Source: a virus (lineage: Duplodnaviria > Heunggongvirae > Uroviricota > Caudoviricetes). Taken from it: a stretch of 53,655 bases of DNA. The position numbers were made by a program, and so were the translations under genes. The stretch is taken from IMG/VR virus record IMGVR_UViG_643348545_000009, positions 1 through 53,655 of that record, one strand, 5' to 3'. The notes beneath the pieces are model-generated. The model worked only from the letters and a program-made list of their open reading frames with translations, was not told the DNA's origin and did no database searches. Shown here piece by piece: positions 832-47,112 of the stretch (the first letter of the stretch is position 1; each line of letters starts with the position of its first letter).

Positions 832-2016
832 TTAAAACTCGAAGTTCACACCAACGTTCCAGGAGGCATCGCCATCACTGAATGCCACGCCTGCTTTCGC
901 TGCGGTCTGCTCGTTGAAGCGGTAACCCACACCCACCGCCAGTGCCTGCTGGTCGCTGTAACCACCAACCGCTGCCGTGGCGTTGAATTTACCCACACTG
1001 TACGGCTGGAACAGACCTGTCAGGGCCGCAGACTGTGCTGCTGCACGCTTCATTTCCTTGTGGTTTTCATTAATCTGGCGCTGCTGGCTGTCCAGACGTG
1101 CTGAATGTTGCTGCAGCGTACGGGTATTGGCTGCAATCGCCTTGCTGTTTTTCTCAATGGATTGCGTGTTACGGGTGACACGGCCATCAATGGCACCAAC
1201 TGCTGCATCAATACGGTCAGTACGACCAGACAGGGCCACCAGACCATCGTTAACAGAAATGGTGTTCTTTGCACCTTCTGCACGGGTCAGGGTGCCATCA
1301 GAACTCACACCAACCAGTGTGCGGGATTCGACTTTTGCAGCTGTTGCAGCAGCCGCAGCATCAATCTTGTCGGTACGCGTGGTCAGTTTACCAAGATTTT
1401 GCTTCTGCGCTTCAAGCTCGCCTTTCTGAGCATCAAGCTCATTCGCAACAATGGTGGAGTGGGCGGCCTCCCCTGCCAGATAGCGCTGTAAAGACATGTG
1501 TTCTTCTATTTCACTCGGATCTGCTGCCACATTTCCATACTTATCCAGGCCGACGTTGGTTTTCATCTGCTGGATTGCTGAAACGCGGTTGTACAGGTCA
1601 CGGATATTCTGTTCTGTCAGAAAAACTCCATCATTCTTACGCGCCAACAGTTTATCTTTCCCTGATGCCGCAGTCTTCATAAAATCATGAAGCTCTTTAT
1701 CATAAACAGTAAATGTTGTCGAACCATCCGCAGAGGTAATTGTAACATTACCATTGACATCTATTTTACTTAGCGCCTGAATCGTTTCCCCCCTCTGCGA
1801 TGCTATACTTCCGTCCTGCCCCCATTTTATATAAGCCGTTTTTGTAGCACCATCAAAATATATCCCATACATAGAACCTGAATTACCGTTTTCCGTTTTT
1901 AGCGCAGAATAATCCCCCGTAGCATCCTGTGTATCCTGTGCAAACGATACACAAGGAACAAACAGCGCTGAAAAAACTGCCGCAGACAAAACAGCCTTTG
2001 TAAACTTCTTGCTCAT
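832..2016 (-). CDS. Trimeric autotransporter adhesin with YadA-like C-terminal anchor; Eib-like (immunoglobulin-binding protein) prophage cargo candidate
   Basis: 394-aa ORF; signal peptide [26 protein letters not shown]; long coiled-coil stalk; C-terminus ...[33 protein letters not shown] typical of YadA/Eib beta-barrel anchors; lies just outside the tail fibre genes. Confidence 0.7.
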
Positions 2017-8732: not shown

Positions 8733-9413
8733 TTATCCCTGTCGACCAATAACCACCACCTTTCCGCCCCCGCCTTCATCACGGGTGCTGATGTCCTGAG
8801 AGATACGTCGTGAACCAACCAGCATTTCCCCGTAAGGCACCGGCATCGGGTTGCCCTGGGCAATCATGTTATCCAGTGAGGAAAAATACGTGTTCTGTTT
8901 ACCGTTATCCGTTGCCCGGTAATCCGGTGTCTTTGCCTTCGGGGCAAGCATCTGCGCCACACCACCCAGAATCATGCTGGCACCCAGTGAAAACAGCATC
9001 GTGGTGGCAGAAAAACCACCGGCTGCCAGGGCTGAACCCCATAACGCCATTGATGCCCCGGCCGTGAAGAAAGACCCCACAATGGCAGCTGCCCCCAGCA
9101 CAATCTGTAGTCCGCCCTTTCCGGCTCCGGCCAGTCGCGGCACAATATGGATAACCGTTCCCTCACCCAGTGGTTCGTGAAGGCGGGCATACACCGCCTC
9201 CGGTGCCGTATCCTCACCGGCAATGCGTATCTGGTACCAGCCTTCGTTCATCTGACGGCGGAATCCCGGCACCTGCTGCGACAGGGCGCGGATGGCTTCC
9301 GCCGCCGTGTTCACATACAGGCTGAAGCGGCGGCCAAATCGTTGTAAATCCCCGTGAAGGCAGATGTGTGCCAGTGGCGGTGACGCCAGACAGAATGCGT
9401 TCGTCGTTGCCAT
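8733..9413 (-). CDS. I: Tail assembly protein I
   Basis: 226 aa; near-colinear with lambda gpI as recalled (…ICLxGDLQRFGRR…, C-terminal …NGKQNTYFSSLDNM.AQGN..PV.YGE…). Confidence 0.9.
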   Translation of the reverse strand: MATTNAFCLASPPLAHICLHGDLQRFGRRFSLYVNTAAEAIRALSQQVPGFRRQMNEGWYQIRIAGEDTAPEAVYARLHEPLGEGTVIHIVPRLAGAGKGGLQIVLGAAAIVGSFFTAGASMALWGSALAAGGFSATTMLFSLGASMILGGVAQMLAPKAKTPDYRATDNGKQNTYFSSLDNMIAQGNPMPVPYGEMLVGSRRISQDISTRDEGGGGKVVVIGRQG

Positions 9414-10048
9414 TTTTCGGAATACCTCTCCCGTTTACTCAGTTGTTCAGGCAGATGGTGAAGCAGTTCACCGTTGCCGCAGTAAATGGCGGCATGATTA
9501 GCCACCGATGCGCCGAAGCAGCACAGCAGGATATCGCCCGGCAGTGCAGAGGACAGGGGCACCCGGTAAAAGCCCGTTGCCTCCATATTGTCCAGGTAAA
9601 GGTTCTGACCGTTGCACCACCAGTCATCCTCACGGTGAAAATCCGGCATATCAATGCCTGCCAGATGGTATGCATCCCGGAACAGCGTGTAACAGTCCGT
9701 CACCCCGTGCGCAAAGCGCCGTCCGGTCAGGTGCGGAACGCAGCGGAATTTGTGAATGTCACCCCGGCAGACCAGCCACCAGGGCAGGGCACTTTTTATC
9801 TGCAGTCGCCGGTCTGCCTCACTCAGCCAGGGCAGACCACCGGGATGACTGTGGACCAGCGCCACAATCTCACCCTGCATCTCCGCCCGCAGCCAGTCTT
9901 CCGGGGCAATACGAAAATACGCCTCCGGCGCTGCGGAGATATTCACACAGGGCAGGTACCGCTCGCCCTCCGTCGTGGTTATCACGAAGCCGCACGACTC
10001 CGCAGGCGCACACCGCCGGGCATGCGCCAATATATTGCTATAGAGCAT
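9311..10048 (-). CDS. K: Tail assembly protein K (JAB/MPN plus NlpC/P60-like)
   Basis: 245-aa ORF between the inserted ant module and I; HSHPGG motif of JAB/MPN domain; AGGAG upstream of ATG 10048. Confidence 0.85.
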   Translation of the reverse strand: MLYSNILAHARRCAPAESCGFVITTTEGERYLPCVNISAAPEAYFRIAPEDWLRAEMQGEIVALVHSHPGGLPWLSEADRRLQIKSALPWWLVCRGDIHKFRCVPHLTGRRFAHGVTDCYTLFRDAYHLAGIDMPDFHREDDWWCNGQNLYLDNMEATGFYRVPLSSALPGDILLCCFGASVANHAAIYCGNGELLHHLPEQLSKRERYSEKWQRRTHSVWRHRHWHTSAFTGIYNDLAAASACM

Positions 10049-10059
10049 GAGAACTCCTG

Positions 10060-10087
10060 ATAAAAAACCCAGCCGAAGCTGGGTTTG
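10060..10087 (-). terminator. Intrinsic terminator downstream of ant
   Basis: Hairpin AAACCCAGC-CGAA-GCTGGGTTT followed on the minus strand by a U-run. Confidence 0.5.
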
Positions 10088-10102
10088 TTAAGTTGTCAAT
10101 TG

Positions 10103-11017
10103 TCAGTAGCGATGCAGTGAAGGCGGCAACTCTTTGTTCTTAAGCCTTTCCCACGCCAGAAGGTTCGTCGGCCCGTCAGGCTCATAAATATCTATATCCC
10201 GCGTGTGATTAATTAAAACGCCCCTCGCCCTCCCGATGGTATACGAGAACTCATAGCCGTAGTCGTGGCATATGCCGGAATAGCCAGACTGAATCAGTTT
10301 TAATGCGGGATACAACTCACGGAACAATGCCTGTGAGCGGTTAGCATAATCCCATAGCCATACAAGGCTGTTTGCTTCTTTTGCGGAAAGCTCGTTGGTG
10401 CTCTTCTCTTGTTTGCCGATTAACTCTCCTTCAAGCGGAACGCGAGCAGCAAGTGACAGAGCTTCGGTAAACTGCTCCTCGCTGATTTCTTTGTACGAAC
10501 ATCCAAAATGTGATTTCAGTGACGACCACATGGTGATCATCGCCTTCGCCTGTTTTTCCTTTGGCAGAGACTGACCGCGACTCATGACGAGTTGTTTAAT
10601 GGCTTCCTGCTGTTCAGTAGTGATTTTCCCCGGCAACGCCTTTTTAGCTTTCAGTGTATTTCCGTAAGACCCCGTTTTACGAATGGATGGCAAAACTTCA
10701 GCTGTCACCCATTTGCGGAATTTGTGCGGGACTGAACCTTTATTGACGGCATCGCGGCAACGCAGAACCAATGTATACATACCTGATTCGCTCACAATGC
10801 TTAAATTCTGCTCACCACCAAGGGTGTAACTTAAAGTTACTCCCTTTTCATCGTCATCAAGTGCAGTAAGCGCCTTGCGTGAGTTAGTCAGATTTAAAGC
10901 ATCACAAACATCTTTTGCTACAAACCACGGCTCACCGCACTTGTTGATGACGCGGATTTCACTGTCGCCGAATTTGAAGATGGTGAAATCGTTTTGTGCC
11001 TTTGCTATACTTTTCAT
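10103..11017 (-). CDS. ant: Phage antirepressor (Ant; Bro-N N-terminal domain)
   Basis: 304-aa ORF; N-terminal [30 protein letters not shown] resembles Bro-N/antirepressor domain; downstream of an Arc-like gene as in P22 immI. Confidence 0.85.
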
Positions 11018-11079
11018 GTCAATATTTCCTAATCCGATTTGTTGATACCGAAGCCCTGACTGTTACAGCAGTTGGGGCT

Positions 11080-11220
11080 TCAACTTTTTAGGCTGCGAAT
11101 AAGACGCTGCACTATTTCTGAATTTAAAGACCTGCCCTCCTCCTTAGCCTTTTCCTTCAATTTTTCTTTAATCTCTGGCGGGATACGAATCCCTAATGGA
11201 GCGATATCTCTAACTTTCAT
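11080..11220 (-). CDS. arc: Arc-like ribbon-helix-helix repressor
   Basis: 46-aa product MKVRDIAPLGIRIPPEIKEKLKEKAKEEGRSLNSEIVQRLIRSLKS resembles P22 Arc (…NGRSVNSEIYQRV…); internal ATG at 11218-11220 chosen over the longer ORF. Confidence 0.7.
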   Translation of the reverse strand: MKVRDIAPLGIRIPPEIKEKLKEKAKEEGRSLNSEIVQRLIRSLKS

Positions 11221-11330
11221 TTCTTTCCCAATTGCTACACCGTGATAACTAAATACTACACCGTGCTTATTTAAAGTCAAAGTTTTTTTGCCTACACTGT
11301 GTAGCAATGCTACAGCGTGCAGGAGGAAAA
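11221..11330. promoter_or_regulatory. Divergent arc/mnt control region with repeated operator-like motifs
   Basis: CTACACNGTG-like motif four times (11235-11244, 11256-11265, 11292-11301, 11311-11320); palindrome CTACAC-T-GTGTAG at 11292-11304; ATTGCTACAC at 11231-11240 is the inverted repeat of GTGTAGCAAT at 11299-11308. Confidence 0.5.
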
Positions 11331-11579
11331 ATGAAAGGTGCAAGAGATATCAGTCCCTTGGGAATTAGGATTCCAGACTATTTAAAGAAACGCATTCAGC
11401 AGGAAGCGGATAAAAACGGCAGATCAATGAACTCAGAGATTGTGCTTATCCTTCAAAAACATGTTGATAATCTTGATGGCCCTCGCTCACTTGAAGGATT
11501 CGCTAACCAAGAAGCTGACAAATTCAAAGAGGCGCTGCTTGAGACGCTAAAGACCATGTATGGTAAGGATGAAAAATAA
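11331..11579 (+). CDS. mnt: Mnt-like ribbon-helix-helix repressor
   Basis: MKGARDISPLGIRIPDYLKKRIQQEADKNGRSMNSEIVLILQ… resembles P22 Mnt (…NGRSMNSELLQIV…); AGGAGG 5 nt upstream of ATG 11331; divergent from arc-ant. Confidence 0.7.
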   Translation: MKGARDISPLGIRIPDYLKKRIQQEADKNGRSMNSEIVLILQKHVDNLDGPRSLEGFANQEADKFKEALLETLKTMYGKDEK

Positions 11580-12115
11580 TGCTGCACACAATTCATTTCT
11601 TATGCCCCGTTAACACTGCCACTGTTGGGCAACTTCAGAACCACTGTCTCACCGCATTATCTCAAGGCGCAACTGAATTAAATATCCATATATCAAGTCA
11701 GGGAGGGGAAACTGCCGCTGGCTTTACTGCGTATAACTTTCTTAAGTCACTCCCTGTTACCGTTAGAACTCACAACATAAGCAATGTTGAATCCATAGCT
11801 AATATCGTTTTCCTGGCTGGCTCAGAACGTTTCGCAAACCCATTATCAAGATTCCTGTTACATCCTCTATTATGGGTCTTTGCCACCCCAGCCGCCGACC
11901 ATGCCAGATTGAGAGAGTACGGGAAATGCCTCGATAACGATCTTGATCGCTTCGTTGAGACGTTCAATATCGACATCGGAACCCATATTAGGTGGGCATC
12001 CCTGATAGCAGACTCGACCATTTTGGATGCTAACAAGGCTCTTGAGCATGGCATAATTAATTCCATAAAAACTGCAAGGCTGGTATCCAATCAGGCAAAC
12101 TGGTGGGTTGTTTGA
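11579..12115 (+). CDS. ClpP-fold serine peptidase homologue, translationally coupled to mnt
   Basis: 178-aa ORF; ISSQGGETAAGFTAYNFL…SNVESIANIVFLAG…RFANPLSRFLLHPL aligns with the ClpP core (INSPGG…GQAASMGAFLLTAG…RFCLPNSRVMIHQP) with Ser and His retained; start ATG overlaps mnt stop (TAATG). Confidence 0.6.
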   Translation: MLHTIHFLCPVNTATVGQLQNHCLTALSQGATELNIHISSQGGETAAGFTAYNFLKSLPVTVRTHNISNVESIANIVFLAGSERFANPLSRFLLHPLLWVFATPAADHARLREYGKCLDNDLDRFVETFNIDIGTHIRWASLIADSTILDANKALEHGIINSIKTARLVSNQANWWVV

Positions 12116-12171
12116 TGGGTAAATCATGATTGCTCCTTATAAAAAAACCACCTGACGGTGGGCATAATCCA

Positions 12172-12870
12172 TTACTGCGAAAGTTTATTAATGGAAAGGA
12201 AACCGCCAAAATTGCCGACATTCCTGCGCAGTTCACACCCGCGCATGCACTTGCTGCATCTGTCCTTACGGATATCGGTGGTGGGTTTATCGAACTCATC
12301 CGCCACAGCCCCGCCCGTGTAACCACACTCATCAGAGCGGTAAGTCCACATACAGGTATTCGCCAGCATAATGCGACCGGGAAACAGCGCCCCGTCCGTC
12401 TCGGTCGGTGTGGCCAGCACAAACGAGGCCGTCATGGCTGTGAGCTGCGACATCTGCTCCACCACCCAGCGGTCCGTCAGCTCCTGCTCCGGGTCAGCCT
12501 CCGGATTGCCTGCCACAAAATTCACCGCATCCAGAAAACGCGCATACACCCGGCGACGAACCACCGTGGCCCCCACCAGGCTCTGCAAATCCTCCGCCAT
12601 CCCGGTGACCAGCCCGAACAGATTCGACACCGTCAGTGACGGGCGGGCACTGCTCCCTTTCCCGTTCATCTCAAAGCCGCTGCCGTCAATCGGGTACGCC
12701 TCATACTTCCGCCCCTGCCAGGTGACCGGCTCCCCTTTTTCATTCAGCTCATTACAGAAAAAATACCGCTCACCGCCCTGTACCGTCAGGTCGATTTCCC
12801 AGAGTACCACCCGCGGTGACTGCTCTGATTTAACCGACTCATTCAGGCTTTCTTCGTTGATCTCCTGCAT
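12172..12870 (-). CDS. L: Minor tail protein L
   Basis: Near-colinear with lambda gpL as recalled (…VVLWEIDLT..GGERYFFCNE.NEKGEPVTWQGR.Y…GNFGGFLSINKLSQ); ATG at 12868-12870. Confidence 0.9.
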   Translation of the reverse strand: MQEINEESLNESVKSEQSPRVVLWEIDLTVQGGERYFFCNELNEKGEPVTWQGRKYEAYPIDGSGFEMNGKGSSARPSLTVSNLFGLVTGMAEDLQSLVGATVVRRRVYARFLDAVNFVAGNPEADPEQELTDRWVVEQMSQLTAMTASFVLATPTETDGALFPGRIMLANTCMWTYRSDECGYTGGAVADEFDKPTTDIRKDRCSKCMRGCELRRNVGNFGGFLSINKLSQ

Positions 12871-12883
12871 AAACATCCACCCA

Positions 12884-12909
12884 TAAAAAAAGGGGCGCAA
12901 TGCGCCCCT
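12884..12909 (-). terminator. Intrinsic terminator downstream of porin moron
   Basis: Hairpin GGGGCGCA-(3 nt)-CGCCCC followed on the minus strand by an 8-U run. Confidence 0.5.
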
Positions 12910-13066
12910 GATAAAATAGTTCAATTAAAAAATCAAAAACGATGAAGGTAATAAAATGAAAATTAAATCAGCTAATAGCTGATCGCAGTGACCAGTGGAA
13001 ATATAACTTCCACTGATACAGGCCATCTGTGAGGGCAGATGGCCTGTATTTATTTACCAGTAATCA

Positions 13067-14230
13067 TCAGAACTGATAAGTCATACCAACAGCAACGATA
13101 TCATCCGTTGCAATGCCCGCATCCCTGGTAAACTTATTCTCATCAACCAGATTGATTTTATAATCAACATAGGTGGACATATTTTTATTGAAGTAATATT
13201 TCGCACCTACGTCAACATACTTAACCAAATCCTGGTCACCATAGTTTTTACCACCTACAATGACATCCTGAGCACGAGACTGCAGGAATGCCAGAGATGG
13301 ACGCAGACCGAAATCAAACTGATACTGCAGTACCGCTTCAAAGTTTTGCGCTTTATCTGCAACTCCTTTATCACCAAAGGTCGTCAGATTCTGAGTTTCG
13401 GAATATGTTGTAGCCAGGTAAAGGTTGTCAGCATCGTATTTTAGTCCGACTCCCCACATCTCAGCGTGTTTACCTTTTGCAACACTACCGGAATCAACAA
13501 CGATCTGCTTTTCAGTCACTTTACCGGTTAAAGGATCAGTTTGTTCAATCGTCAGAGTACCATTCAGACCTTTTTCCTGATTATTGGTTCGGTCCGCATT
13601 AATATATGCGGCAACGATACCAAAACCTTCATATTCATAACTGGCTGAGAAACCGTGACCATCACCATTAGCTTTCCGGAGATCACCCCGATCATTTTTA
13701 CCCTGGTACTGTGCCGCAAAATTCAGGCCATCGACAAGCCCAAAGAAATCTGTATTACGATAGGTTAATACCCCGGAAGTACGGGCTGTCATGAAGTTAT
13801 CGGTCTGGGTCCAGCCATCACCGCCAAACTCTGGTAATACGTCAGTATAAGAACCAACATCGTACGCAATACCATAGTTACGACCATAATCAATGGTGCC
13901 AAACTCACCAAACTTCAGACCTGCAAATGCAAGACGGGTTTTATTACCCGCAGCACCCTCTGATTCAGCTTTATTACCAGAGAACTGATATTCCCACTGA
14001 CCAAAACCAGTCAACTGGTCATTAATCTGAGTTTCACCTTTAAAGCCCAGACGTGCGTATGTCTTATCTCCATCATCCCCCTTATCACTGGAGAAATAAT
14101 GGAGTGCAGTTGCACGCCCATACACATCAAGTTTATTGCCATCTTTATTGTATACTTCTGCAGCCTGCGCCCCCGCTGCAAAAATTACAGCTGCTGCCAC
14201 AGCTGAAAGTGCCACTGTCATTTTTTTCAT
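13067..14230 (-). CDS. General porin, OmpC/OmpF/NmpC/Lc family (phage-borne moron)
   Basis: 387 aa; signal peptide ending AQA; porin motifs throughout; C-terminal …VAVGMTYQF aromatic terminus; AAGGA upstream of ATG; AT-rich own promoter region 14231-14436. Confidence 0.9.
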
Positions 14231-14436
14231 GATTTAATCCTTATTTAAACTGAACTATTCATGCATAGAGATGTCATGAACAAAACTCAAAATATTGTAA
14301 ATTAAATTACGGGTTCAATTTTTATTTTGTTTCAAAATGTAAAAAAACAACTTTGATAGCACTTTATGTCAAGACAAAACAAAAATAACAAGCAAGCAAA
14401 TTAATAAACGATGCTTTTAGGTTTTTTCTCAAAAAC

Positions 14437-14778
14437 TTATCTTATTACCTGTTCCATCATACAACTGAAATCGCTGTACCTGGCGTTATCCGTAATACTC
14501 CACTCCCGGCACACCACCCTGACCGTCCGGTTATGTTTCGGCGGTCGCCACAAAAAGGCACGGTAACCACCATGCCACGATAAAAATTCATCCAGCCAGC
14601 GCCGGGTCGCCTCATCCGTCACCCGGAACACTGCCTGAAATGTCTTCAGTCTGGCATTAAGTCCCGTCGGTCGGCGCTGTTCATAACCGTCACCAAACCG
14701 GACCCTCACCACCGACGGTTTCTCACTCACCTGCATCCCTTCACGCGGGACCAGATGCAGCGTTTTTATCTCAGCCAC
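14437..14778 (-). CDS. M: Minor tail protein M
   Basis: …VVRVRFGDGYEQRRPTGLNARLKTF… matches lambda gpM (…VRKVRFGDGYSQRAPAGLNANLKTY…); GTG start overlaps H stop, internal ATG possible. Confidence 0.85.
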   Translation of the reverse strand: MAEIKTLHLVPREGMQVSEKPSVVRVRFGDGYEQRRPTGLNARLKTFQAVFRVTDEATRRWLDEFLSWHGGYRAFLWRPPKHNRTVRVVCREWSITDNARYSDFSCMMEQVIR

Positions 14779-17700
14779 TCAGCATTCCTCCGTCTCGTCG
14801 CATGGACAGCATCACCGCCTGCACCCGCTGGTCAATCAGCTGAACAAGGCTGCCTGCCGCCTCCGGCCCTATCTGACCGTTGGCCCCGTCATTCTGAATG
14901 GCGATGTGGTAGACCGGGGAATACACCAGACCCGCACTCCCGTTCATCCTGCCCACGGCACGTACGCCCAGCGAGCCATCCGCCGCCCGGGTCAGGGGCA
15001 TTATGGCTTCAGGTCCGGCTTCCCCCATCAGCCCGGCCCCTTTTGCAAAGGCAAAGTACGTGGGCGTATCCACAATGCTGTTGCTGTACGCACTCAGGTT
15101 TGCCGAGGTATACACACCGCCTTTTGCATTCGCCATCGCGCCGCTCAGCCAGCTGCCGATACTGCCCGTTATTCCCCCTGCACCGGACATGCTGTTTGCC
15201 GCCATCTTAATGCCGTTGACAATGGCCGCATTCATAAGAACTTTTGATATTTCCTGCAGTACGGATGAGGCCCAGTTGCGCCATTCCACTTTGTTTCCGT
15301 TCAGCATCTCCGTGATGTTATTCACCAGTCCTGAAATCCCCTCCGTTGCCAGCTGTGCTGCCTGAGAGGCGTAATCGGATGCACTGTCCACCCAGTTACT
15401 GAGCCCCTCCTGCAGCCCTTTCTGCCAGTCCGCACGTTGTTCATCCGACCGGGCATAAAAGGCTTCCTGGTCTTTCAGGCGTTCGCTCAGATACTGCGCA
15501 TTCTGTGCCAGTGCCTGTCTGTAAAAATTCTCACTGATATCCCCGGTCTGATACTGAGACTGAAGGTCCGCATCCTTCTGGCGGAAACTGTCGCGGATCT
15601 GCTGCAACTCCCGCATGCGTTCCCTGGCTCGTTCCCCCTGCCCGTATCCCAGCAGTTCAGCGTCATTTGACGCACGCGCAGCCGCATTCTCATTCTTCAG
15701 TGTCTCCTCCCGGGACTGCAACTGTTCCCGGATTTTTTGCTGGTCAATCAGGGCAGCATTGCGCAGCAGTTCCTGCTTCTGTATCTCCGTCAGGGTTTTC
15801 AGTTCGCCCTGCGCTGTCTGGTATTTCAGCTTCGCCAGCTCTGTATTCTGACCCGCCAGTGCCAGTTGCTCTTTCTGCTGCTTCAGCAGCCGGGAAAAAC
15901 TGTCTTCTGCTTTTTCCGTCTCTGATTTTCTGCCCCGGGATTTGGGTTTATTCGCCTCGTTATTACGCCAGGCTTCCAGGGCATTACTGATGTAACGCTG
16001 TCGTGCCTCCTGATATGAATCCCCCACAAAACCAAGGTCATCCGTCGCATATCCCAGCCGGGCGCGCTCTTTTTCTTCCCCTTTCAGTCGTGACAGGGCC
16101 AGTTGACGCTCCGTGTTATTCAGGGCGCTCTGCTGTTTATTATCCAGAGTAGCCTGTGGCAGTCGCAGCGGTACACTCACCAGTCCCTGACGCTGCTCCA
16201 GCAGTTCATTACCCAGCCCCAGCAGGCGGTTGAACTCCGTATGCTGGCCGTTCATGACCAGCAGTGACTGATACGCTTTATTCTGCTCTGCCGCCTGCTG
16301 ACGAATTAACGCCACACGGCGATCTTCCAGTCCGGCAAGCACATCCTGAATGGACTGCGCCTTTTCCTGCATCTGTGCCAGACGGGACTGCTCAACAGCA
16401 AGCTGCTCTGTTGCCTGAGCAAGCCCTTCCGTTACAGTTTTCACCGAGGTCAGATGGTTTATCATGAAGCCGTTACCGGTCGTCCAGCCCGGATTAGCCA
16501 GCACATACTGATACCCGGCGATTTTTTCCTGCAGGGATTTCACCCGGCTGGCGTGCTCATCAATCAGCCTGTTCTGCTCTGTCAGCGCCTCCCGTGTTCG
16601 CCCTTCATTATCTGAGGCTTCAGGCAGAGACATTGACGGCATTTTATGTGCGATTTCATCAATCGTCAGTGCATACTGGCGCGCAGACTCCCTGGCCTGC
16701 TCCTGATTCTGGTACAGCGTGTACCATGCGGCAGCTCCCAGCATCACCAGTCCGGGTACGCCTCCAGCCAGTCCCAGCGCACCGCTCATCAGACGTGAGC
16801 CCACCGCCGTTGTACTGTTCAGCGCATTCTGGGCGGCGGTTCTGGCTGCAATATTTCTGTTCAGACGTTCCTGTGTGACCGCCAGACGGGCCTCTGCGGC
16901 AATCTGCATCTCCGTCCCGCGGGCTGCCGCCACAGCCTGCTGAGCCCGGTACACGGCTGCCCTTGCCCGCGCCGTGGCAATCTGTGTTCCCCTTAACTGG
17001 GCCTCAGCCAGTGCCACTTCATTACGTGCGGCGGTCACAAGTCCTGCCGTCGCAGACATCGCTCCGGAGGCCAGATTACCAAAGTACCGGGCCACCCCGA
17101 CGGCAACCAGCACACCGGCTGCTGACGCCACATTATCAATATTACCGGCAACACTGTTCAGCACACCAGAGAGCGTTTTTGTCGCACCGCTGGCTTCATT
17201 CGCGCCACCCACCCAGGCCATAAAAGCGTTTTCCACCTTCGTGATACTGCCGGACACCGTTTCCGGCATGGCCACATATTCATCACGTAATGCGCCCAGC
17301 TGGCTGATTAACGCCGGGACAACTTTATCGGTGGTCAGTTTGCCGTCGTTCGCCATCGCCTTCAGGTCTTTACGCGCCACGCCCAGTCCCGCTGCCAGTG
17401 CCCGGATCACCCGGTCACCATTTTCATTAACCGAATTAAATTCCTCGCCGCGCAACACACCCTGTGCCAGCGCCTGACTGAACTGGGTGATCACCGAACC
17501 CGCCTCTGCCGTACTGGCACCAGAAATTTTCAGCCCCGTGGAAATGGCTTCCGTCACCTTCAGGACATCACCGGCACTGTAACCATATTCACGCATTGAG
17601 GCCGCAGAACGGGCAAACAACGCCGCATTATCCGAAAATGACGTCCCCGTCCGCTGGCTGATATCCATCAGCACTTTCTGTGATGACGAAAACTCATCCG

Positions 17701-18013
17701 ATGACTGCGACGCCTGTTTCAGACGGGCATTCACGGAGCTCCATTCATCCGCCAGCGAGATCAGGTGTCCTGTGGCAAAGGCCCCGGCAAACGCTCCCAC
17801 CGTTCCGACAGCCGAAGCGCGGATCTCCGTCAGCTGACTGTTCAGCTCCGCCAGGGCGCGCCGCTGCTCCCGGGCCGCTGCGGCAGCCTGACGCCCGCCA
17901 TTCTGCAGGGTACGGTAATATTCACTACCCATACGGGAAGCCCGCTGGATCTCCGACTGGAATGACTGTGAATTTGCCGAAATTTTGATAATCAGTTCAC
18001 GTAACGTCGCCAT
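14771..18013 (-). CDS. H: Tail tape measure protein H
   Basis: 1080-aa largely alpha-helical/coiled-coil ORF between G/T and M; ATG at 18011-18013. Confidence 0.9.
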   Translation of the reverse strand: MATLRELIIKISANSQSFQSEIQRASRMGSEYYRTLQNGGRQAAAAAREQRRALAELNSQLTEIRASAVGTVGAFAGAFATGHLISLADEWSSVNARLKQASQSSDEFSSSQKVLMDISQRTGTSFSDNAALFARSAASMREYGYSAGDVLKVTEAISTGLKISGASTAEAGSVITQFSQALAQGVLRGEEFNSVNENGDRVIRALAAGLGVARKDLKAMANDGKLTTDKVVPALISQLGALRDEYVAMPETVSGSITKVENAFMAWVGGANEASGATKTLSGVLNSVAGNIDNVASAAGVLVAVGVARYFGNLASGAMSATAGLVTAARNEVALAEAQLRGTQIATARARAAVYRAQQAVAAARGTEMQIAAEARLAVTQERLNRNIAARTAAQNALNSTTAVGSRLMSGALGLAGGVPGLVMLGAAAWYTLYQNQEQARESARQYALTIDEIAHKMPSMSLPEASDNEGRTREALTEQNRLIDEHASRVKSLQEKIAGYQYVLANPGWTTGNGFMINHLTSVKTVTEGLAQATEQLAVEQSRLAQMQEKAQSIQDVLAGLEDRRVALIRQQAAEQNKAYQSLLVMNGQHTEFNRLLGLGNELLEQRQGLVSVPLRLPQATLDNKQQSALNNTERQLALSRLKGEEKERARLGYATDDLGFVGDSYQEARQRYISNALEAWRNNEANKPKSRGRKSETEKAEDSFSRLLKQQKEQLALAGQNTELAKLKYQTAQGELKTLTEIQKQELLRNAALIDQQKIREQLQSREETLKNENAAARASNDAELLGYGQGERARERMRELQQIRDSFRQKDADLQSQYQTGDISENFYRQALAQNAQYLSERLKDQEAFYARSDEQRADWQKGLQEGLSNWVDSASDYASQAAQLATEGISGLVNNITEMLNGNKVEWRNWASSVLQEISKVLMNAAIVNGIKMAANSMSGAGGITGSIGSWLSGAMANAKGGVYTSANLSAYSNSIVDTPTYFAFAKGAGLMGEAGPEAIMPLTRAADGSLGVRAVGRMNGSAGLVYSPVYHIAIQNDGANGQIGPEAAGSLVQLIDQRVQAVMLSMRRDGGMLSG

Positions 18014-18030
18014 TCACCTTTCTCCGGGCG

Positions 18031-18055
18031 AAAAAAAACCTGCCGCAGCAGGTTT
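18031..18055 (-). terminator. Intrinsic terminator downstream of lipoprotein moron
   Basis: Hairpin AACCTGC-TGCGG-CAGGTT followed on the minus strand by an 8-U run, immediately upstream of H. Confidence 0.55.
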
Positions 18056-18076
18056 TATTCATCAGCAGATTATTGA

Positions 18077-18490
18077 TTAAGTTTCGGGTACCAGCCCGGG
18101 ATTCAGACTTCCCGGACTCAGTGTATACATGCCGCCATTGAATGGGTCCACAAGCAACCAGCCAACAATACCACCAAAGACAAAGTTACCACCAATATAC
18201 CAGCCATTAGCCGATGCCTTGATCGGCAGCGTTACGGGCTGATAATTCTCTTTACTGAATGTGATCTGATAACTCTTTTTCCCGAAGTAACTGCCATCTG
18301 ATTTTTCAAGTGTTACATTCTGCGGTGTTTTACCCGAAGAAATTGTTTTCCCTGACTCATCTTTAATAATAAAATCCGCGCCAGCCGGATTACTGTTTAC
18401 CTGTACAGTCTGCGTTTTATCTCCGACAATGGTTGCACACCCCGTCAGAAAAAAACTTACAGAGAAAATCAACAACATGAATTTCTTCAT
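18077..18490 (-). CDS. Lipoprotein moron (unknown function) between H and G/T
   Basis: 137 aa; signal peptide with lipobox LTGC; C-terminal Gly-rich hydrophobic segment; followed by its own terminator. Confidence 0.6.
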   Translation of the reverse strand: MKKFMLLIFSVSFFLTGCATIVGDKTQTVQVNSNPAGADFIIKDESGKTISSGKTPQNVTLEKSDGSYFGKKSYQITFSKENYQPVTLPIKASANGWYIGGNFVFGGIVGWLLVDPFNGGMYTLSPGSLNPGLVPET

Positions 18491-18553
18491 AAAATAACTC
18501 CATTCAGTTAATTTCCCCCAAAAATACTGTAATAAATACCCGCAAGGTTGACA

Positions 18554-18868
18554 TTAATTCTCTGAGGCAAATAACAGAGCATTTTCCAGCTCTGCAAACG
18601 GATCCATCTCCTGCTTGTCCTCATCCTCGCCCCAGCAGAGCATGGCATCCTTCAGTGCAACGTTCATTCCCTGCGCCCCGAAAACCGCTTTCACGATCTG
18701 CGCATTACGGATATCCCCGCGCTCATCGCCCAGCGGAGACACCCTGTCGAACTCCATCCACATCATCGCTTCACTCGCACTCAGGCTATGCCGCAGTTCG
18801 GATAACGTGCGCCCCAGACGGAGCGCAAGTCGCATCAGAAAGCGTATTTCCGGGCGGGCTACTTTTTT
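18554..18868 (-). CDS. T: T segment of tail assembly chaperone G-T, expressed by -1 frameshift from G
   Basis: -1 frame ORF continues past the G stop; slippery heptamer A_AAA_AAG at 18862-18868 (minus strand …GCC AGA AAA AAG TAG). Confidence 0.65.
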   Translation of the reverse strand, partial: KKVARPEIRFLMRLALRLGRTLSELRHSLSASEAMMWMEFDRVSPLGDERGDIRNAQIVKAVFGAQGMNVALKDAMLCWGEDEDKQEMDPFAELENALLFASEN

Positions 18869-19233
18869 CTGGCCGCCTCTGCATCAGCGATCAGATCCAG
18901 TGCCTGACGCAGCAACCGGGCATGTACCGGACCATAGACGACCAGCACCTGCTCCCGATCGTCCGCAGTGAACACCCGCTGCAGATCCGTATCACACAGC
19001 ACATCGCAGAACAGCGTCACATCCGCTTCCAGATTACGGCGGGTTTTCGCCACCACCGACAGAGGTTCGTCACCCGTATCACCGTCATTAAGCACTTCCC
19101 GCCACAGATACCAGGCCTCTGCCGAAGGTTCCCGCAGCACCACGCTGACATTTTCCCATTCAGGCACCCGCACCGTTTTATGACGAAACCCTGACAGTCT
19201 GGCCAGCGCCAGCGTTTTCAGATCCTTTTTCAT
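18859..19233 (-). CDS. G: Tail assembly chaperone G
   Basis: 124-aa acidic ORF between V and H ending at the slippery site; ATG at 19231-19233. Confidence 0.75.
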   Translation of the reverse strand: MKKDLKTLALARLSGFRHKTVRVPEWENVSVVLREPSAEAWYLWREVLNDGDTGDEPLSVVAKTRRNLEADVTLFCDVLCDTDLQRVFTADDREQVLVVYGPVHARLLRQALDLIADAEAARKK

Positions 19234-19247
19234 GATGACCCATCCCC

Positions 19248-19964
19248 TTATCCGGCGGCTGCGCTCACAGTCACGGTGCATTCAACAGACGTCACACTCT
19301 GTGCCCTCTCTGCCGAATCGGTCACCACGCAGGTATATTTCCCCGCATCGGCGGACTGCGCGTTTGGCTTACTGAAGGTGTCAGCCGTCTGCCCCTCAAC
19401 CGGCTGACCGTCCTTCTTCCAGGCGTATTTATACGGCGGCGTTCCCCCGTTGACACTGACTGACATTGTCAGCAGCGCACCAGTATTCACGGCAAGTGTC
19501 TTCTCCAGATTTTTCACAAACGCCAGCGGTACCACATAGAACATCGGTTTGCCTTTCAGGCGCAGTGAAAACGTTGCAGCCACCACGCCGTTGGTACCGG
19601 ATGACCAGGTGTGCTGACGCACTTCCGCCAGGAACTTAAAGCCCTTACCGGACGGAAACTGCACCTTAAACGCATACACCGTGTCATTGTCATAGGCATC
19701 ACGCAGGGCGTTCTGGGCCTGATTCAGATAAAAATTACCCGACATGGAAATCTCGGACGACGCCCCCAGACCGTTGATGTTCTCCTGCTCTGTGGAGCAG
19801 AGCGTGGTCACATCAATATCCTGTTTCTGACCGGCGGTGAACTGGACTTCCTTGATGGTGCAGTCCAGGCGCAGATATTCCGCCTTATCCATAGTTTCAG
19901 CAGTCGCCGGGGCAGATGAAATCATCACCTGCGTCAGCTGTGAGCGTTCATACAAAGCAGACAT
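19248..19964 (-). CDS. V: Major tail protein V with C-terminal Ig-like domain
   Basis: 238 aa; C-terminal …TMSVSVNGGTPPYKYAWKKDGQPV…YTCVVTDSA… Big_2/Ig-like pattern; AGGAGG upstream of ATG. Confidence 0.9.
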   Translation of the reverse strand: MSALYERSQLTQVMISSAPATAETMDKAEYLRLDCTIKEVQFTAGQKQDIDVTTLCSTEQENINGLGASSEISMSGNFYLNQAQNALRDAYDNDTVYAFKVQFPSGKGFKFLAEVRQHTWSSGTNGVVAATFSLRLKGKPMFYVVPLAFVKNLEKTLAVNTGALLTMSVSVNGGTPPYKYAWKKDGQPVEGQTADTFSKPNAQSADAGKYTCVVTDSAERAQSVTSVECTVTVSAAAG

Positions 19965-20030
19965 TCTGCCTCCTGATAATAAAAAACCCGCACGCGGCGG
20001 GGTATGGGTTTTGTAGAAAAAAAGAAAAAG

Positions 20031-30304: not shown

Positions 30305-30562
30305 CTACTTCGCTTTTGCTTCCGCTCGCTTACACCGGCGCTTTTCTTTCTTCTCGGCTTTTGCCATGTCCATGAATGCCTGCATGATCGAGTTCCGCAT
30401 CATGTAGCTGACAAAGTGATGATTGACACAGCCGTTGAGGCGCAACTGCTCGCCAAACTCATCCACCGAGGCCAATGCTTCCATCACGCCCTTCTCGCCT
30501 TTCATGAACGCTGAGAAGTCGCGCCCCGCTCTGGAGGCGCATTCAATGACACGATCACTCAT
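30305..30562 (-). CDS. Hypothetical protein, translationally coupled to KilA-N gene
   Basis: 85-aa ORF; ATG overlaps stop of upstream gene (ATGA); terminator-like hairpin GCCCACCAGTAGATGGGC just downstream. Confidence 0.45.
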   Translation of the reverse strand: MSDRVIECASRAGRDFSAFMKGEKGVMEALASVDEFGEQLRLNGCVNHHFVSYMMRNSIMQAFMDMAKAEKKEKRRCKRAEAKAK

Positions 30563-31125
30563 CCCGGAAGCCCGGGGATTGTGATCTGCAACTGGTTAGC
30601 CAGGGAGTTAATCTCAGCGATCAAACCAGGTTTCGTGTAGCGCCATGCCGCAAGGCCTTGCCCGCAGAAGCTCGCCATATCTTTTTTCTGATCAAACTCA
30701 TGACACTTCATATTGAGCTGCGCACTTAAGCTGTTGCGATGCTGGAGTTCTCCGGTGAAGTAGTCATCCAGGACTTTATAGGCTGCATATTTAAATCCGG
30801 GGTTTAGCCATGCTGCATAATCATAAGCAACAAACTTCCCGCCATATGTTCCACCGTGTACACCGCGCTCAGTAAAAACCACAGATTCGTGGTTTTTCTC
30901 CAGCTCGGCTAAGAACTCTTTGGTCTGCTTGTTTCGCAGGTAGTGGTACGGAGATTCAGATTCACTTTTACCACTGGCTTTCCACATATCAGTGAGGCAG
31001 ATCATGCCATCTTCAGCGACACGGATTGGCTGATTGAAGAGGGTTAATGATTTCATGTCGTATACCTGTTCTTTGAAATGAACCTTTGCCGCATAGGAAA
31101 CCAGCCCACCGAGGCTCGCCAGCAC
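30559..31125 (-). CDS. KilA-N domain protein
   Basis: …SLTLFNQPIRVAEDGMICLTDMWKASGKSESESPYHYLRNKQTKEFLAELEK… KilA-N/APSES-like; true start may be the internal ATG at 31056. Confidence 0.65.
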   Translation of the reverse strand: MLASLGGLVSYAAKVHFKEQVYDMKSLTLFNQPIRVAEDGMICLTDMWKASGKSESESPYHYLRNKQTKEFLAELEKNHESVVFTERGVHGGTYGGKFVAYDYAAWLNPGFKYAAYKVLDDYFTGELQHRNSLSAQLNMKCHEFDQKKDMASFCGQGLAAWRYTKPGLIAEINSLANQLQITIPGLPG

Positions 31126-31254: not shown

Positions 31255-31584
31255 CTAACCGATGAGTTTTAAATCAGCTTTTCGGTGTTTTTTCTGATCG
31301 GTATAAAAATTTTCATGTGGACCGATGCTAAGGAGGTAGAGCTCAAGTTTATCGTCAAGCCAGCTGTAACCCAGAAGCACCAGTTGATTATTCAGCTGAA
31401 ATTTATGCACACGAAGAAAACTGAGGTCTCCTTTCTTTTGCGTTCCCAACAGAGGATTATCAATTATTCTGTCGATCTCATCTTCCACAACTTTCAGTTG
31501 CGCTTCCGGGAGTTTACTCAGAGACTTTTCAAAACGCCGACTCTGATAAACATCAATTTCACGACCTGTCTGTTCTTCTGACAT
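31255..31584 (-). CDS. Type II toxin, RelE/ParE superfamily
   Basis: 109 aa; …GDLSFLRVHKFQLNNQLVLLGYSWLDDKLELYLLSIGPHENFY… typical RelE/ParE fold signature; overlaps upstream antitoxin gene by 26 nt. Confidence 0.7.
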   Translation of the reverse strand: MSEEQTGREIDVYQSRRFEKSLSKLPEAQLKVVEDEIDRIIDNPLLGTQKKGDLSFLRVHKFQLNNQLVLLGYSWLDDKLELYLLSIGPHENFYTDQKKHRKADLKLIG

Positions 31585-31789
31585 AACGCGTTACCTTGTT
31601 GTGTCTGATTTCGCTTTGTGACAGCAGAACTTCGCTAATAAAACTGAATGGCAGATCTGGATTATCTTCAGCTATACGACCAATCTTAGCCCAGTGCTCA
31701 ATTTGCTTTGGTATGCTGCGACTTGCGGCATCAGCGTGAACCTTTACGTCACTGACGAAATCATCGTCTAAACGGATGCTTGTTGCCAT
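31559..31789 (-). CDS. Type II antitoxin, ParD-like
   Basis: 76 aa MATSIRLDDDFVSDVKVHADAASRSIPKQIEHWAKIGRIAEDNPDLPFSFISEVLL… matching the ParD-like antitoxin family pattern. Confidence 0.7.
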   Translation of the reverse strand: MATSIRLDDDFVSDVKVHADAASRSIPKQIEHWAKIGRIAEDNPDLPFSFISEVLLSQSEIRHNKVTRYVRRTDRS

Positions 31790-32842: not shown

Positions 32843-33538
32843 TCATGCTGCGGTAGCTCTCCATGCAGCAAGCAGACCAGCAATCCACTCAACACCTTTT
32901 GGGGTGAATTTAACCTGCGTAAAAGCATGACCATTGCCCGTCTCGCCCGTTTTCACGCTAAACCGCCCCGCATCCAGGTGATGCGAGTAAGGCGTCATTT
33001 TTCCAGCGAGGCGATACATTATTCCGTTCTCCAACAAAAACAGCCGGAAATCGGTTTCTTTGATACCGAGTAACTTAGCAACTTCCCGGAATCCCATCAG
33101 ACCAGATGCTTCAACATAGTTATCAACAAATTCAGCCTTCGGCGCTGCTATTGCCAGTTGATTTTCCAGCACTGCTTTCTGTTCAGCCAGTTTTGCCGCA
33201 AATCGCAACGCCTCAGGTAAAGTCCGGGGGATCTGAATACCATGCATCGCTTTGAGTCTTGCCAGCACAGAACGACGAACGGCCTTTGACTCCCTCATGC
33301 CAACGAGCATCATCTGGTCAAAATCCAGATCATAGTATGCCGTTCTTGTCTGGTTATTGTTTAACCGGAATTTTTTTCCGGTTCCATCAAGCTCTAGCTC
33401 ATCCTCAATTTTTGCAAGAAACTTACGCGGTTCATGAGGGACTTCTCCGGCTTCTGCCCGGGCTGGATTAATAATGTTATTCAGAAAATCCAGACTACTC
33501 ATGGATATTTCATGATCGACAGAAATCATCTCTTTCAT
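32843..33538 (-). CDS. Phage antirepressor-like protein (KilA-C/Ant C-terminal domain)
   Basis: 231 aa; C-terminal …FVDNYVEASGLMGFREVAKLLGIKETDFRLFLLENGIMYRLAGK… antirepressor-type pattern; inserted between endolysin and Rz. Confidence 0.6.
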   Translation of the reverse strand: MKEMISVDHEISMSSLDFLNNIINPARAEAGEVPHEPRKFLAKIEDELELDGTGKKFRLNNNQTRTAYYDLDFDQMMLVGMRESKAVRRSVLARLKAMHGIQIPRTLPEALRFAAKLAEQKAVLENQLAIAAPKAEFVDNYVEASGLMGFREVAKLLGIKETDFRLFLLENGIMYRLAGKMTPYSHHLDAGRFSVKTGETGNGHAFTQVKFTPKGVEWIAGLLAAWRATAA

Positions 33539-46317: not shown

Positions 46318-46743
46318 TCAATGCACGACAACAGCATTACCAGGCTGACCACCACTGTTAGTCAGGGTGCCCCAGGCGATCGCCGCTGCGACAAAATCAT
46401 CCACATCTTTCACCAGCCGATCCCTCCGTTCGACGATCTCACGGTAATATTCAGAGCTGTGACTGCGCATACGGGCCACCAGCAGAGGCGGCATTGCCTT
46501 TTCGATCGCCGGTAACAGAGCCTGAATTTTTTCAACAGCATCAGGGGTGTCTTTATCCAGCCAGCGGAAAATTTTCTGGGTATTACGGGCCAGGGCTTCC
46601 GGATGGCTGTCGTCGTACAGTTCCGGGAACGTCATTCCCAGCTCGAAATACGCTTTGGTAATTTTCGCAGCCGGTACTTTTTCGCCGTCCGGATGCGCCC
46701 AGACATTCATCGCCATGCGGATGTGTTCATGCTTGATTTTCAT
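46318..46743 (-). CDS. YdaT-like protein (cII-position gene of Rac-type early operon)
   Basis: 141 aa beginning MKIKHEHI…, as I recall for YdaT-family proteins; AGGAG upstream. Confidence 0.55.
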   Translation of the reverse strand: MKIKHEHIRMAMNVWAHPDGEKVPAAKITKAYFELGMTFPELYDDSHPEALARNTQKIFRWLDKDTPDAVEKIQALLPAIEKAMPPLLVARMRSHSSEYYREIVERRDRLVKDVDDFVAAAIAWGTLTNSGGQPGNAVVVH

Positions 46744-47008
46744 GAATCAAGCTCCTAGAAAGTGGTTGTGTTAACGTTTTGGTATCTTCCAGCTCGGGCC
46801 AAATATTCATCCAATCAAAAGGCCTTAGTTGCTGACGTGTAACTTCACCATTACTGGCTCGCTCAATAAGGACACATAACGATGCCCCTAACACTTGACC
46901 TTTACTCAATGCTTTTCTTAGATAACCGATGCTGGTACCACACTCGCATGCAAACATACGCTGTTCATCTGACGAAAGAGAATTGAGAAATATTCTTAAT
47001 TCTTCCAT
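46727..47008 (-). CDS. Cro-like repressor (YdaS/DicC-position HTH protein)
   Basis: 93 aa; …GYLRKALSKGQVLGASLCVLIERASNGEVTRQQLRPFDWMNIWPELE… YdaS-type pattern; AAGGAG upstream of ATG 47008; divergent from repressor. Confidence 0.7.
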   Translation of the reverse strand: MEELRIFLNSLSSDEQRMFACECGTSIGYLRKALSKGQVLGASLCVLIERASNGEVTRQQLRPFDWMNIWPELEDTKTLTQPLSRSLIHENQA

Positions 47009-47112
47009 AGCTACTCCTTAGTAAACACAGCAAAGAATACCCACAGGTAAACAAAAGTCAATACCCACAGGTTGTTTACCTTGCGGTAATTGCATCTATT
47101 ATTTACCTATGG
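47009..47112. promoter_or_regulatory. Divergent immunity promoter/operator region
   Basis: TACCCACAGGTA at 47038-47049, TACCCACAGGTT at 47062-47073, and the inverted form TACCTATGG at 47104-47112 overlapping the repressor ATG. Confidence 0.5.

Follow-up and report, generated by a model that had tools for sequence, protein, structure and literature searches.

A 2,144-bp insert resembling the immI (secondary-immunity) region of phage P22, a block also called the "ant moron," lies between tail genes K and L of a lambda-like siphovirus in IMG/VR virus record IMGVR_UViG_643348545_000009. The whole stretch of DNA analyzed here (the window) comprises 53,655 nucleotides, and all positions refer to it unless a locus or record is named. 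An earlier note on this DNA had proposed a P22 immI-like switch at this place, consisting of an antirepressor with a Bro-N N terminus, an Arc-like gene, and a divergent Mnt-like gene. Pfam matches confirmed all three genes, but a 178-amino-acid (178-aa) ClpP-like open reading frame (ORF) and the antisense RNA sar, both within the coordinates given in that note, had been missed. The locus contains the following features.

8733-9413, minus strand: tail gene I, in the tail operon on the same strand as K and L
9311-10048, minus strand: tail gene K (Pfam Prok-JAB/NLPC_P60)
10028..12171, no strand: the whole inserted ant moron, 2,144 bp, defined against the empty L/K site of PhiR12_2 and lambda
10028..10048, minus strand: new 5' end of K (MLYSNIL...) supplied by the insert, with AGGAG upstream at about 10055-10059
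10062-10083, minus strand: intrinsic terminator 3' of ant, CCCAGC-TTCG-GCTGGG plus U6 (fold −15.1 kcal/mol, z = −3.7)
10103-11017, minus strand: ant, 304-aa antirepressor (Pfam Bro-N, N-terminal, 2.5e-20; P22_AR_C, C-terminal, 4.5e-26)
10983..11011, plus strand: candidate sar promoter (Psar) from a promoter scan, −35 GTGAAA, 17-nt spacer, TG-extended −10 TATACT
11019-11085, plus strand: sar antisense RNA (Rfam RF00262, full length, 69.4 bits against a gathering score of 43, E = 1e-13)
11080-11220, minus strand: Arc-like ribbon-helix-helix (RHH) repressor, 46 aa, first gene of the arc-ant operon (Pfam Arc, 5e-13)
11221-11330: control region, 110 bp, between the divergent Arc-like and Mnt-like genes
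11331-11579, plus strand: Mnt-like repressor, 82 aa, RHH domain plus C-terminal helix (Pfam Arc, 6e-8)
11579-12115, plus strand: ClpP-like gene, 178 aa, N-terminally truncated (Pfam CLP_protease, 1.6e-11); its ATG overlaps the mnt stop (TAATG)
12138..12161 (hairpin 12148-12161), minus strand: terminator-like hairpin CCACC-GTCA-GGTGG plus T7 from a terminator scan, directly 3' of L, forming the left end of the insert
12172-12870, minus strand: tail gene L (Pfam Phage_tail_L)

The placement of the module between two genes that are adjacent in lambda was confirmed at the coordinates proposed; the K-L gap measures 5 to 10 bp in lambda and in the sibling phage PhiR12_2. Comparison with these uninserted relatives placed the insert at 10028-12171, where it replaces 37 bp of the empty L/K junction, the first codons of K among them. 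K begins MLYSNIL-AHARR at occupied sites, versus MTQTESAIL-AHARR at empty ones, and its first seven codons and ribosome-binding site (RBS) are provided by the insert. Read on the minus strand from L, the insert consists of a hairpin with T7, the plus-strand mnt-ClpP-like operon converging on L, the control region, the Arc-like gene, a 62-bp spacer, ant, a strong terminator, AGGAG, and the K start codon. In the lambda record (L110, lambda 14127-14276), K is annotated from 14276, and homology to the N terminus of the window K (AHARRCAPAESCGF...) begins 5 bp past the L stop in another frame; the annotated lambda K looks N-terminally short or frameshifted compared with its relatives.

The terminator that had been ascribed to the module is the strong one 3' of ant, whereas the hairpin after L folds weakly (−8.6 kcal/mol, z = −1.1). 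Both are conserved in the variant carried by the Shiga toxin (Stx) phage Stx2a_WGPS6, in which the ant-terminator sequence is identical. None of the four module ORFs is interrupted, and the module recurs at 99.6% identity in the deposited phages PhiR12_1, 4, and 5. As befits a moron, the block is missing from otherwise syntenic relatives (PhiR12_2 included) and has its own predicted promoters and terminators. An 85-aa ORF at 11870-12127 (minus strand), antisense within the ClpP-like gene and running in the late-operon direction, is probably spurious; it starts 7 nt past a strong AAGGAG that itself comes right after the post-L terminator.

Repressors, candidate operators and antisense RNA

Every component of the module is homologous to P22 immI, the sar RNA included, and the module was also found in the canonical immI site of P22-like phages, so that "immI-like" had understated the relationship. 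Ant matched PHROG 245 ("anti-repressor Ant") at 1.5e-104, and its residues 134 to 304 (171 aa) are 63% identical to P22 Ant (E = 5e-71). The Arc-like protein, encoded 62 bp ahead of ant, is 43% identical to P22 Arc and matched both Arc (7e-5) and Mnt (1.5e-5) in the PDB. The Mnt-like protein aligned end to end with P22 Mnt (residues 4 to 79, C-terminal tail included) at 33% identity (E = 1e-13), and its best solved relative is PDB entry 1MNT (1.6e-5).

The RHH fold assumed for the two small proteins stood up in the Pfam and PDB sequence matches. AlphaFold2 (AF2) monomers of both consisted of an extended N terminus and two helices, with a predicted local distance difference test (pLDDT) score of about 66 and low confidence in the Arc-like model. 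Helices of the Mnt-like model fell at residues 16-29, 33-47, and 54-77, the last being the long C-terminal helix. Foldseek ranked Arc first (probability 0.98) at a nonsignificant E value of 0.19. These models are consistent with an RHH fold without giving independent proof of it, and the assignment is carried by the sequence matches.

The N-terminal heads with which the two repressors would read DNA, RDIAPLGIRIP in the Arc-like protein and RDISPLGIRIP in the Mnt-like protein, are identical at 10 of 12 residues, 6 of which use different codons; in helix A, which follows the heads, just 2 of 14 residues are common to both. The differing codons and the divergent helix A argue that the shared heads reflect selection and not recent gene conversion, which points to a common DNA-reading specificity that is under selection. 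The arrangement departs from that of P22, in which the two repressors have distinct operators (Oarc differs from Omnt), and other classes of the same family do pair differing Arc and Mnt heads. On the simplest reading, one operator type would serve both a short repressor (presumed dimer) and a tailed repressor (presumed tetramer), and the difference between maintenance and postinfection shutoff would depend on how the proteins oligomerize, on the pairing of sites (21-bp and 18-bp spacings), and on timing. A single repeated motif also appears to serve the Stx-phage class and class F, so that the window is not alone in this wiring. With one head on a short and on a tailed repressor, the module could be used to learn how oligomeric state by itself sets "maintenance" apart from "shutoff" repression.

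Arc contacts DNA through Gln9, Asn11, and Arg13, and Mnt does so through Arg2, His6, Asn8, and Arg10; the His6-to-Pro substitution in Mnt is the classic altered-specificity mutant. The residue of the Mnt-like protein that aligns with P22 Mnt His6 is Pro. Two P22-like loci, L027 (2017-3103) and L028 (3959-5329), carry tandem arrays of two or three Mnt-like RHH genes, which separate the control region from the ClpP-like gene.

Four candidate operators and two candidate divergent promoters were located in the control region.

11235..11247, plus strand: candidate operator O1, CTACAC-C-GTGATA, just downstream of the predicted Pant −10, in the position of P22 Omnt
11256..11268, plus strand: candidate operator O2, CTACAC-C-GTGCTT, between the predicted Pant −35 and −10, in the position of P22 Oarc
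11292-11304, plus strand: candidate operator O3, the perfect palindrome CTACAC-T-GTGTAG (CTACACTGTGTAG), overlapping the proposed Pmnt −10 and start site
11310..11322, plus strand: candidate operator O4, CTACAG-C-GTGCAG (CTACAGCGTG), in the mnt leader beside the AGGAGG Shine-Dalgarno sequence; the weakest of the four
11253..11280, minus strand: candidate Pant from a promoter scan, −35 TTGACT (11280-11275), 16-nt spacer, −10 TAGTAT (11258-11253), 9 of 12 matches
11270..11298, plus strand: candidate Pmnt, weak and found by eye, −35 TTTAAA (11270-11275), 17-nt spacer, −10 TACACT (11293-11298), 8 of 12 matches

The four motifs and the palindrome had been described before and were recovered here. 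CTACASNGTG is confined to the control region within the 53.6-kb window (5 strand-hits versus 0.43 expected; 5 were reached in 1 of 100 shuffles). O1 and O2 form a 21-bp tandem repeat, with CTACACCGTG found at both 11235 and 11256. In a 74%-identical relative (L030) the core of O1 is kept, with ACAC-N-GTG retained and the central base altered, and O3 does not vary among the 11 distinct class-A control regions. P22 Omnt, AGGTCCAC-G/C-GTGGACCT, has the core CAC-C-GTG at its center too.

The strongest computational support for reading these motifs as operators comes from their covariation with the repressor heads. Across the loci compared, about ten specificity classes were distinguished, each of which matches its own Arc/Mnt N-terminal heads with its own repeated control-region motif, such as GGTATAAC-C-GTTATACC, GGAACCAC-G-GTGGTTC, three copies of ATGTCC-N4-GGACAT, or TTTGATATCAAA. 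Heads and operators that change together in about ten classes provide a natural data set for RHH-DNA recognition.

The TTGACT element of the predicted Pant is conserved in specificity classes A and B. For the opposite direction, we infer that Pmnt lies at 11270-11298, with O3 over its −10 and start and O4 in its leader; it was proposed because a TTTTTTTGC[CA]TACACT block is conserved between classes A and B despite their differing operators. A long-range inverted repeat that had been reported in the control region is real and longer than described (ATTGCTACACCGTG / CACTGTGTAGCAAT; 14 nt, 93% complementary). The idea that an inverted repeat at 11283-11306 / 11308-11331 forms a leader hairpin hiding the mnt Shine-Dalgarno sequence was dropped, as the proposed start site comes only after the left arm of the repeat.

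Complementarity of the sar RNA extends from the end of arc through the arc-ant spacer to the ant RBS. It folds into the two expected hairpins (−29.8 kcal/mol, z = −5.5), the terminator hairpin lying at 11050-11081. The sar region is 84% identical to that of P22, with the terminator hairpin and the TTGCTATACT block nearly identical; this block, which contains the −10 of the candidate Psar, is the same in P22, whose record annotates a sar promoter. A search of the window for a LexA box (CTGT-N8-ACAG) gave a sole match, at 18393, and none near ant, so that SOS control of the Gifsy type is not indicated for ant.

Origin, frequency and proposed operation

Mnt-like genes were found at 79 IMG/VR loci, and among these an identical class-A module occurs in two settings, between K and L (L017, L018, and L020 to L022) and between homologs of P22 gp16 and gp9 (L019, L023, L025, L026, and L029). 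The ClpP-like gene is present in some of these class-A loci and absent in others. The 3' part of mnt and the ClpP-like gene also recur together, at 98 to 99% DNA identity, in the canonical immI position between injection genes and tailspike, both in Lederbergvirus phiv205-1 and in a P22-like prophage beside bioA-ybhB. The immI site of phiv205-1 has the same mnt C-terminal part and ClpP-like gene but a class-B arc and class-B operators, and a recombination breakpoint falls inside mnt at about 11498. The insert of Stx2a_WGPS6 has the same ends with a different interior, which fits one old insertion whose cargo has been exchanged by recombination with P22-type immI regions. The module shows the P22 secondary-immunity switch to be a cassette in circulation between podoviral and siphoviral late operons.

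A second immunity-type switch in a tail operon had been called unusual, a judgment that the census did not uphold. With a synthetic empty L|K junction as the query, lambda-type K/L junctions in 271 phage records were contiguous in 241 and split in about 28 to 30, so that roughly one in ten is occupied. In a separate census, the right-end signature (ant terminator plus new K start, at least 80% coverage) was present in 463 of 5,426 complete E. coli genomes (about 8.5%), with up to six matching places per genome; the genomes listed with it include O157:H7, O145:H28, and O111. The exact version, with the ClpP-like gene and between K and L, is rarer, with 12 genomes and the three deposited phages PhiR12_1, 4, and 5. 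RefSeq records of Stx phages label genes between L and K "anti-repressor Ant," "Arc-like repressor," and "Arc family DNA-binding protein." These counts and labels, together with the published concept of the ant moron, show the insertion to be recurrent. No paper was found on immI-type modules between lambda K and L or on the PhiR12 phages, and the Stx-phage L-K block turned up in the literature search solely as database annotation, with no study found. Many signature-carrying E. coli genomes are enterohemorrhagic (O157:H7, O145:H28, and O111), and K/L antirepressors may contribute to cross-induction among their lambdoid prophages.

The description of the host phage as Qin-like was not confirmed, as its early region is Rac-type (YdaS, YdaT, and a RecE-like exonuclease) and neighboring prophages have HK97-type head genes. 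The primary immunity region, at 46318-47528, comprises a 139-aa repressor-like ORF (47109-47528, plus strand), a YdaS-like gene (46727-47008), and a YdaT-like gene (46318-46743), the latter two divergent from the repressor ORF. Searches of the window with phmmer found no homologs of P22 C2, Cro, or C1. A repressor lacking an S24 peptidase domain, as this candidate does, would plausibly need an antirepressor for induction. Two more antirepressor-type genes stand among the late-region ORFs, at 30559-31125 and 32843-33538 (both minus strand), one with KilA-N plus ORF11CD3 and the other with ANT/KilAC domains, which brings the candidate antirepressors in the prophage to three.

We consider it likely that the segment works as an immI module of the P22 type. 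It would be an ant moron drawn from a pool shared with P22-like podophages and seated at a recurrent L/K insertion point. The following operation is proposed, with the regulatory logic of P22 taken from the annotation of the P22 record and from PMC2629481. In a lysogen, the Mnt-like repressor would be made from the weak rightward promoter and, presumably as a tetramer held by its C-terminal helix, would occupy O1 and O2, covering the Pant start site and spacer and keeping arc-ant silent; it would probably also regulate its own synthesis through O3 and O4. When the genome enters a cell free of Mnt, Pant would fire, and the Ant produced would bind and inactivate CI-type repressors. The Arc-like protein, as the first product of the same transcript, would then shut Pant, and sar, transcribed antisense from inside the 5' end of ant, would pair with the ant RBS and block further translation. 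Having the same reading N terminus, the Arc-like and Mnt-like proteins should compete or cooperate at one operator type.

Several observations weigh against this account. The N-terminal (Bro-N) domain of Ant is unrelated to that of P22 Ant. The DNA-facing strand positions of the repressors are Pro, Gly, and Arg, an unusual reading surface that makes the assignment of proteins to operator sites uncertain, and the AF2 models of the two proteins, at a pLDDT of about 66, had no significant match in the fold search. O4 is the least conserved motif, with only its CA(C/G)-N-GTG core retained in relatives, and the class-A control regions are well conserved overall, which lowers the power of footprinting. 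Pmnt is an 8-of-12 match read by eye and unflagged by the promoter scan. Finally, the prophage's own repressor candidate (47109-47528) has no Pfam match and no S24 peptidase domain.

The terminators after L and after ant would insulate the module, and antiterminator-modified late transcripts would have to pass both to reach K, I, and J. Their orientation with the late operon on either side of the module, and the fact that the RBS and start codon of K come from the insert, raise the question of whether the main selected role is cis-regulatory, with terminators and repressor-bound promoters setting late transcription into K, I, J, and the fiber genes, and immunity being secondary. An influence of the P22 ant moron on tailspike levels has been raised as a possibility (PMC2629481). 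We regard this explanation as improbable: about 90% of lambda-type phages in the collection lack an insert at the junction, so that it is not needed for tail assembly, and it would not account for why ant, sar, and the heads are conserved.

It is even harder to accept that the module is a decaying, nonfunctional remnant of immI whose presence in the tail operon is simply tolerated. Its four ORFs are all intact, the sar match exceeds the Rfam gathering threshold by a wide margin, the amino acids of the heads are conserved across synonymous change, and the same module recurs in PhiR12_1, 4, and 5 as well as on lambda-like and on P22-like backgrounds. This very unlikely explanation draws on the degraded ant morons described in P22-like phages (PMC2629481) and on one relative (L024) with an R-to-H change in the Arc head and changes in O2 and the Pant −35.

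The prophage carries other cargo as well. An OmpC-like porin gene (13067-14230, minus strand; Porin_1, 1.8e-139) lies between M (14437-14778) and L as a second moron of the tail operon. Its surroundings (12100-20000, 7.9 kb) are matched over at least 80% in 91 complete E. coli genomes, and a porin is annotated among the tail genes in all 8 matches listed. A lipoprotein-like ORF at 18077-18490 (minus strand; MKKFMLLIFSVSFFLTGC...; no Pfam match), just upstream of the tape-measure gene, has no counterpart at this position in the related AP045179 prophage, and it may be a third moron. Small overlapping ORFs of 76 and 109 aa at 31255-31789 (minus strand) resemble, as judged by eye, a ParD/RelE-like antitoxin/toxin pair. 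Near the prophage end, downstream of the tail-fiber genes, a YadA-type membrane anchor protein (832-2016, minus strand; 3.6e-16) represents adhesin-like cargo.

The ClpP-like gene

Among solved structures, the product of the ClpP-like gene is closest to PDB entry 9UXT (E = 2.3e-35; about 50% identity by eye over 173 aligned residues, 3 to 175). Its Ser72 and His95 are invariant in 23 homologs, while the third position of the canonical Ser-His-Asp triad, residue 146, is Ser or Ala across those homologs and Ser in the window protein. The N-terminal axial loops with which ClpP docks ClpX and ClpA are absent, the Pfam match beginning at profile position 37 of 182, and residue 23 aligns with residue 50 of Mycobacterium tuberculosis ClpP1. 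Assignment as a head maturation protease was rejected, since the NF045542 score was 49.7 bits against a cutoff of 120 and the gene is outside the head cluster and on the strand opposite the late operon wherever examined. The record labels "head maturation protease" and "ATP-dependent Clp protease subunit" are likewise unjustified, with scores far under every NCBIfam cutoff.

Homologs from Pantoea, Erwinia, Proteus, Rahnella, Chromobacterium, and lambdoid contigs are, where phage genes were recognizable (L008 to L015 and L113 to L116), lone genes running counter to the late genes. They are situated between tail or baseplate genes, between fiber and lysis genes, or between lysis genes and terminase, and no RHH, Arc, or Ant gene was seen near them in the loci examined. 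On this evidence the ClpP-like gene is an independent moron that became joined to the mnt transcript in E. coli immI regions. A PADLOC scan of all four module proteins gave no match, so that the module cannot be assigned to a known defense system.

The least credible explanation is that the Mnt-like RHH protein acts with the ClpP-like protein as a two-gene toxin-antitoxin or defense pair (the RHH protein as antitoxin or protease regulator), with the link to ant incidental: the TAATG overlap of stop and start, the match of the Arc-like (not the Mnt-like) protein to antitoxin-type RHH profiles (HicB, 7.6e-6; RelB-like, 0.002), and the fact that the C-terminal part of mnt travels with the ClpP-like gene between classes A and B (98 to 99% DNA identity from 11498 on) are outweighed by the homologs that stand alone in other genera without RHH, Arc, or Ant neighbors, by the many immI loci that hold the same Mnt-like gene without a ClpP-like gene, by the lack of a PADLOC match, and by the full-length alignment of the Mnt-like protein with P22 Mnt.

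The 9UXT protein is "ClpP1" of Pseudomonas plecoglossicida, which is without the N-terminal ClpX-docking region and does not bind ClpX; it has a Ser-His-Pro site and low activity and forms 14-mers, and with canonical ClpP it forms mixed 14-mers that enhance ClpXP degradation (PMC12900304). The window protein is like it in its truncated N terminus, its conserved Ser and His, and its non-Asp third position. The two differ in setting: in that paper ClpP1 figures as a paralog of ClpP on the chromosome and the word "prophage" does not appear, whereas the window gene belongs to a prophage, as cargo of the mnt transcript. The presence of the ClpP-like moron here suggests that the recently solved "ClpP paralog" belongs to a prophage-borne family; no paper on prophage ClpP-like morons was found.

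Being predicted to be cotranscribed with mnt, the ClpP-like cargo would be expressed in lysogens. A more far-reaching scenario, which we put forward as speculation and think unlikely, is that the ClpP-like protein is made with Mnt in every lysogen and coassembles with host ClpP into mixed 14-mers that alter ClpXP/ClpAP output. It might then either hold down the level of leaky Ant, or of another protein that promotes lysis, or degrade the proteins of superinfecting phages, a protease-based exclusion in the place of P22 sieA, and the whole family, 9UXT included, would consist of prophage-borne modulators of host proteases.

Comparison with known systems

One of the closest known systems is the immI region of P22. 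The two have in common the gene order and orientation (mnt<-|->arc-sar-ant-terminator), a homologous Ant C-terminal half, Arc, full-length Mnt, and sar, operators placed alike relative to Pant, a terminator of their own, and a location inside the late operon just upstream of host-recognition genes. They differ in that the operators of P22 are of two kinds, 21 and 17 bp long, whereas the window appears to have one operator type in four copies and a shared reading head. The control region is 110 bp in the window versus 90 bp in P22, and its promoters appear to be back to back, whereas those of P22 overlap fully, as far as we can infer. Ant has a Bro-N N terminus in the window, mnt is followed by the ClpP-like gene in place of the orf59a/sieA of P22, and the host phage is a lambda-like siphovirus.

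The ant moron of P22-like phages has been described as a variable, independently expressed block, often made up of mnt, arc, and ant together with unrelated cargo genes (Villafane et al. 2008, PMC2629481). Recombination reshuffles it rapidly, and that study saw morons at a single place in P22-like morphogenetic clusters (PMC2629481). Class-A and class-B modules with the ClpP-like gene occupy that same site, whereas the window block resides in a lambda-type tail-tip operon that also holds the porin moron.

The block of long-tailed Stx-converting phages (such as Stx2a_WGPS6, 2851, YYZ-2008, and 1717) shares with the window the L-K insertion point and both insert ends, which are identical (the terminator after L at one end; the ant terminator, AGGAG, and the new K start at the other). 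It differs in its heads (LNLRLP and FNLRFP), its GGTGCCA-like operator motif, its 106-aa Mnt-like protein, and its lack of a ClpP-like gene. By these comparisons, elements of this kind, complete P22-type secondary-immunity cassettes at a recurrent moron site, are already known. New in the window are the repressor pair of apparently single specificity with its four putative operators and the ClpP-like cargo on the predicted mnt transcript.

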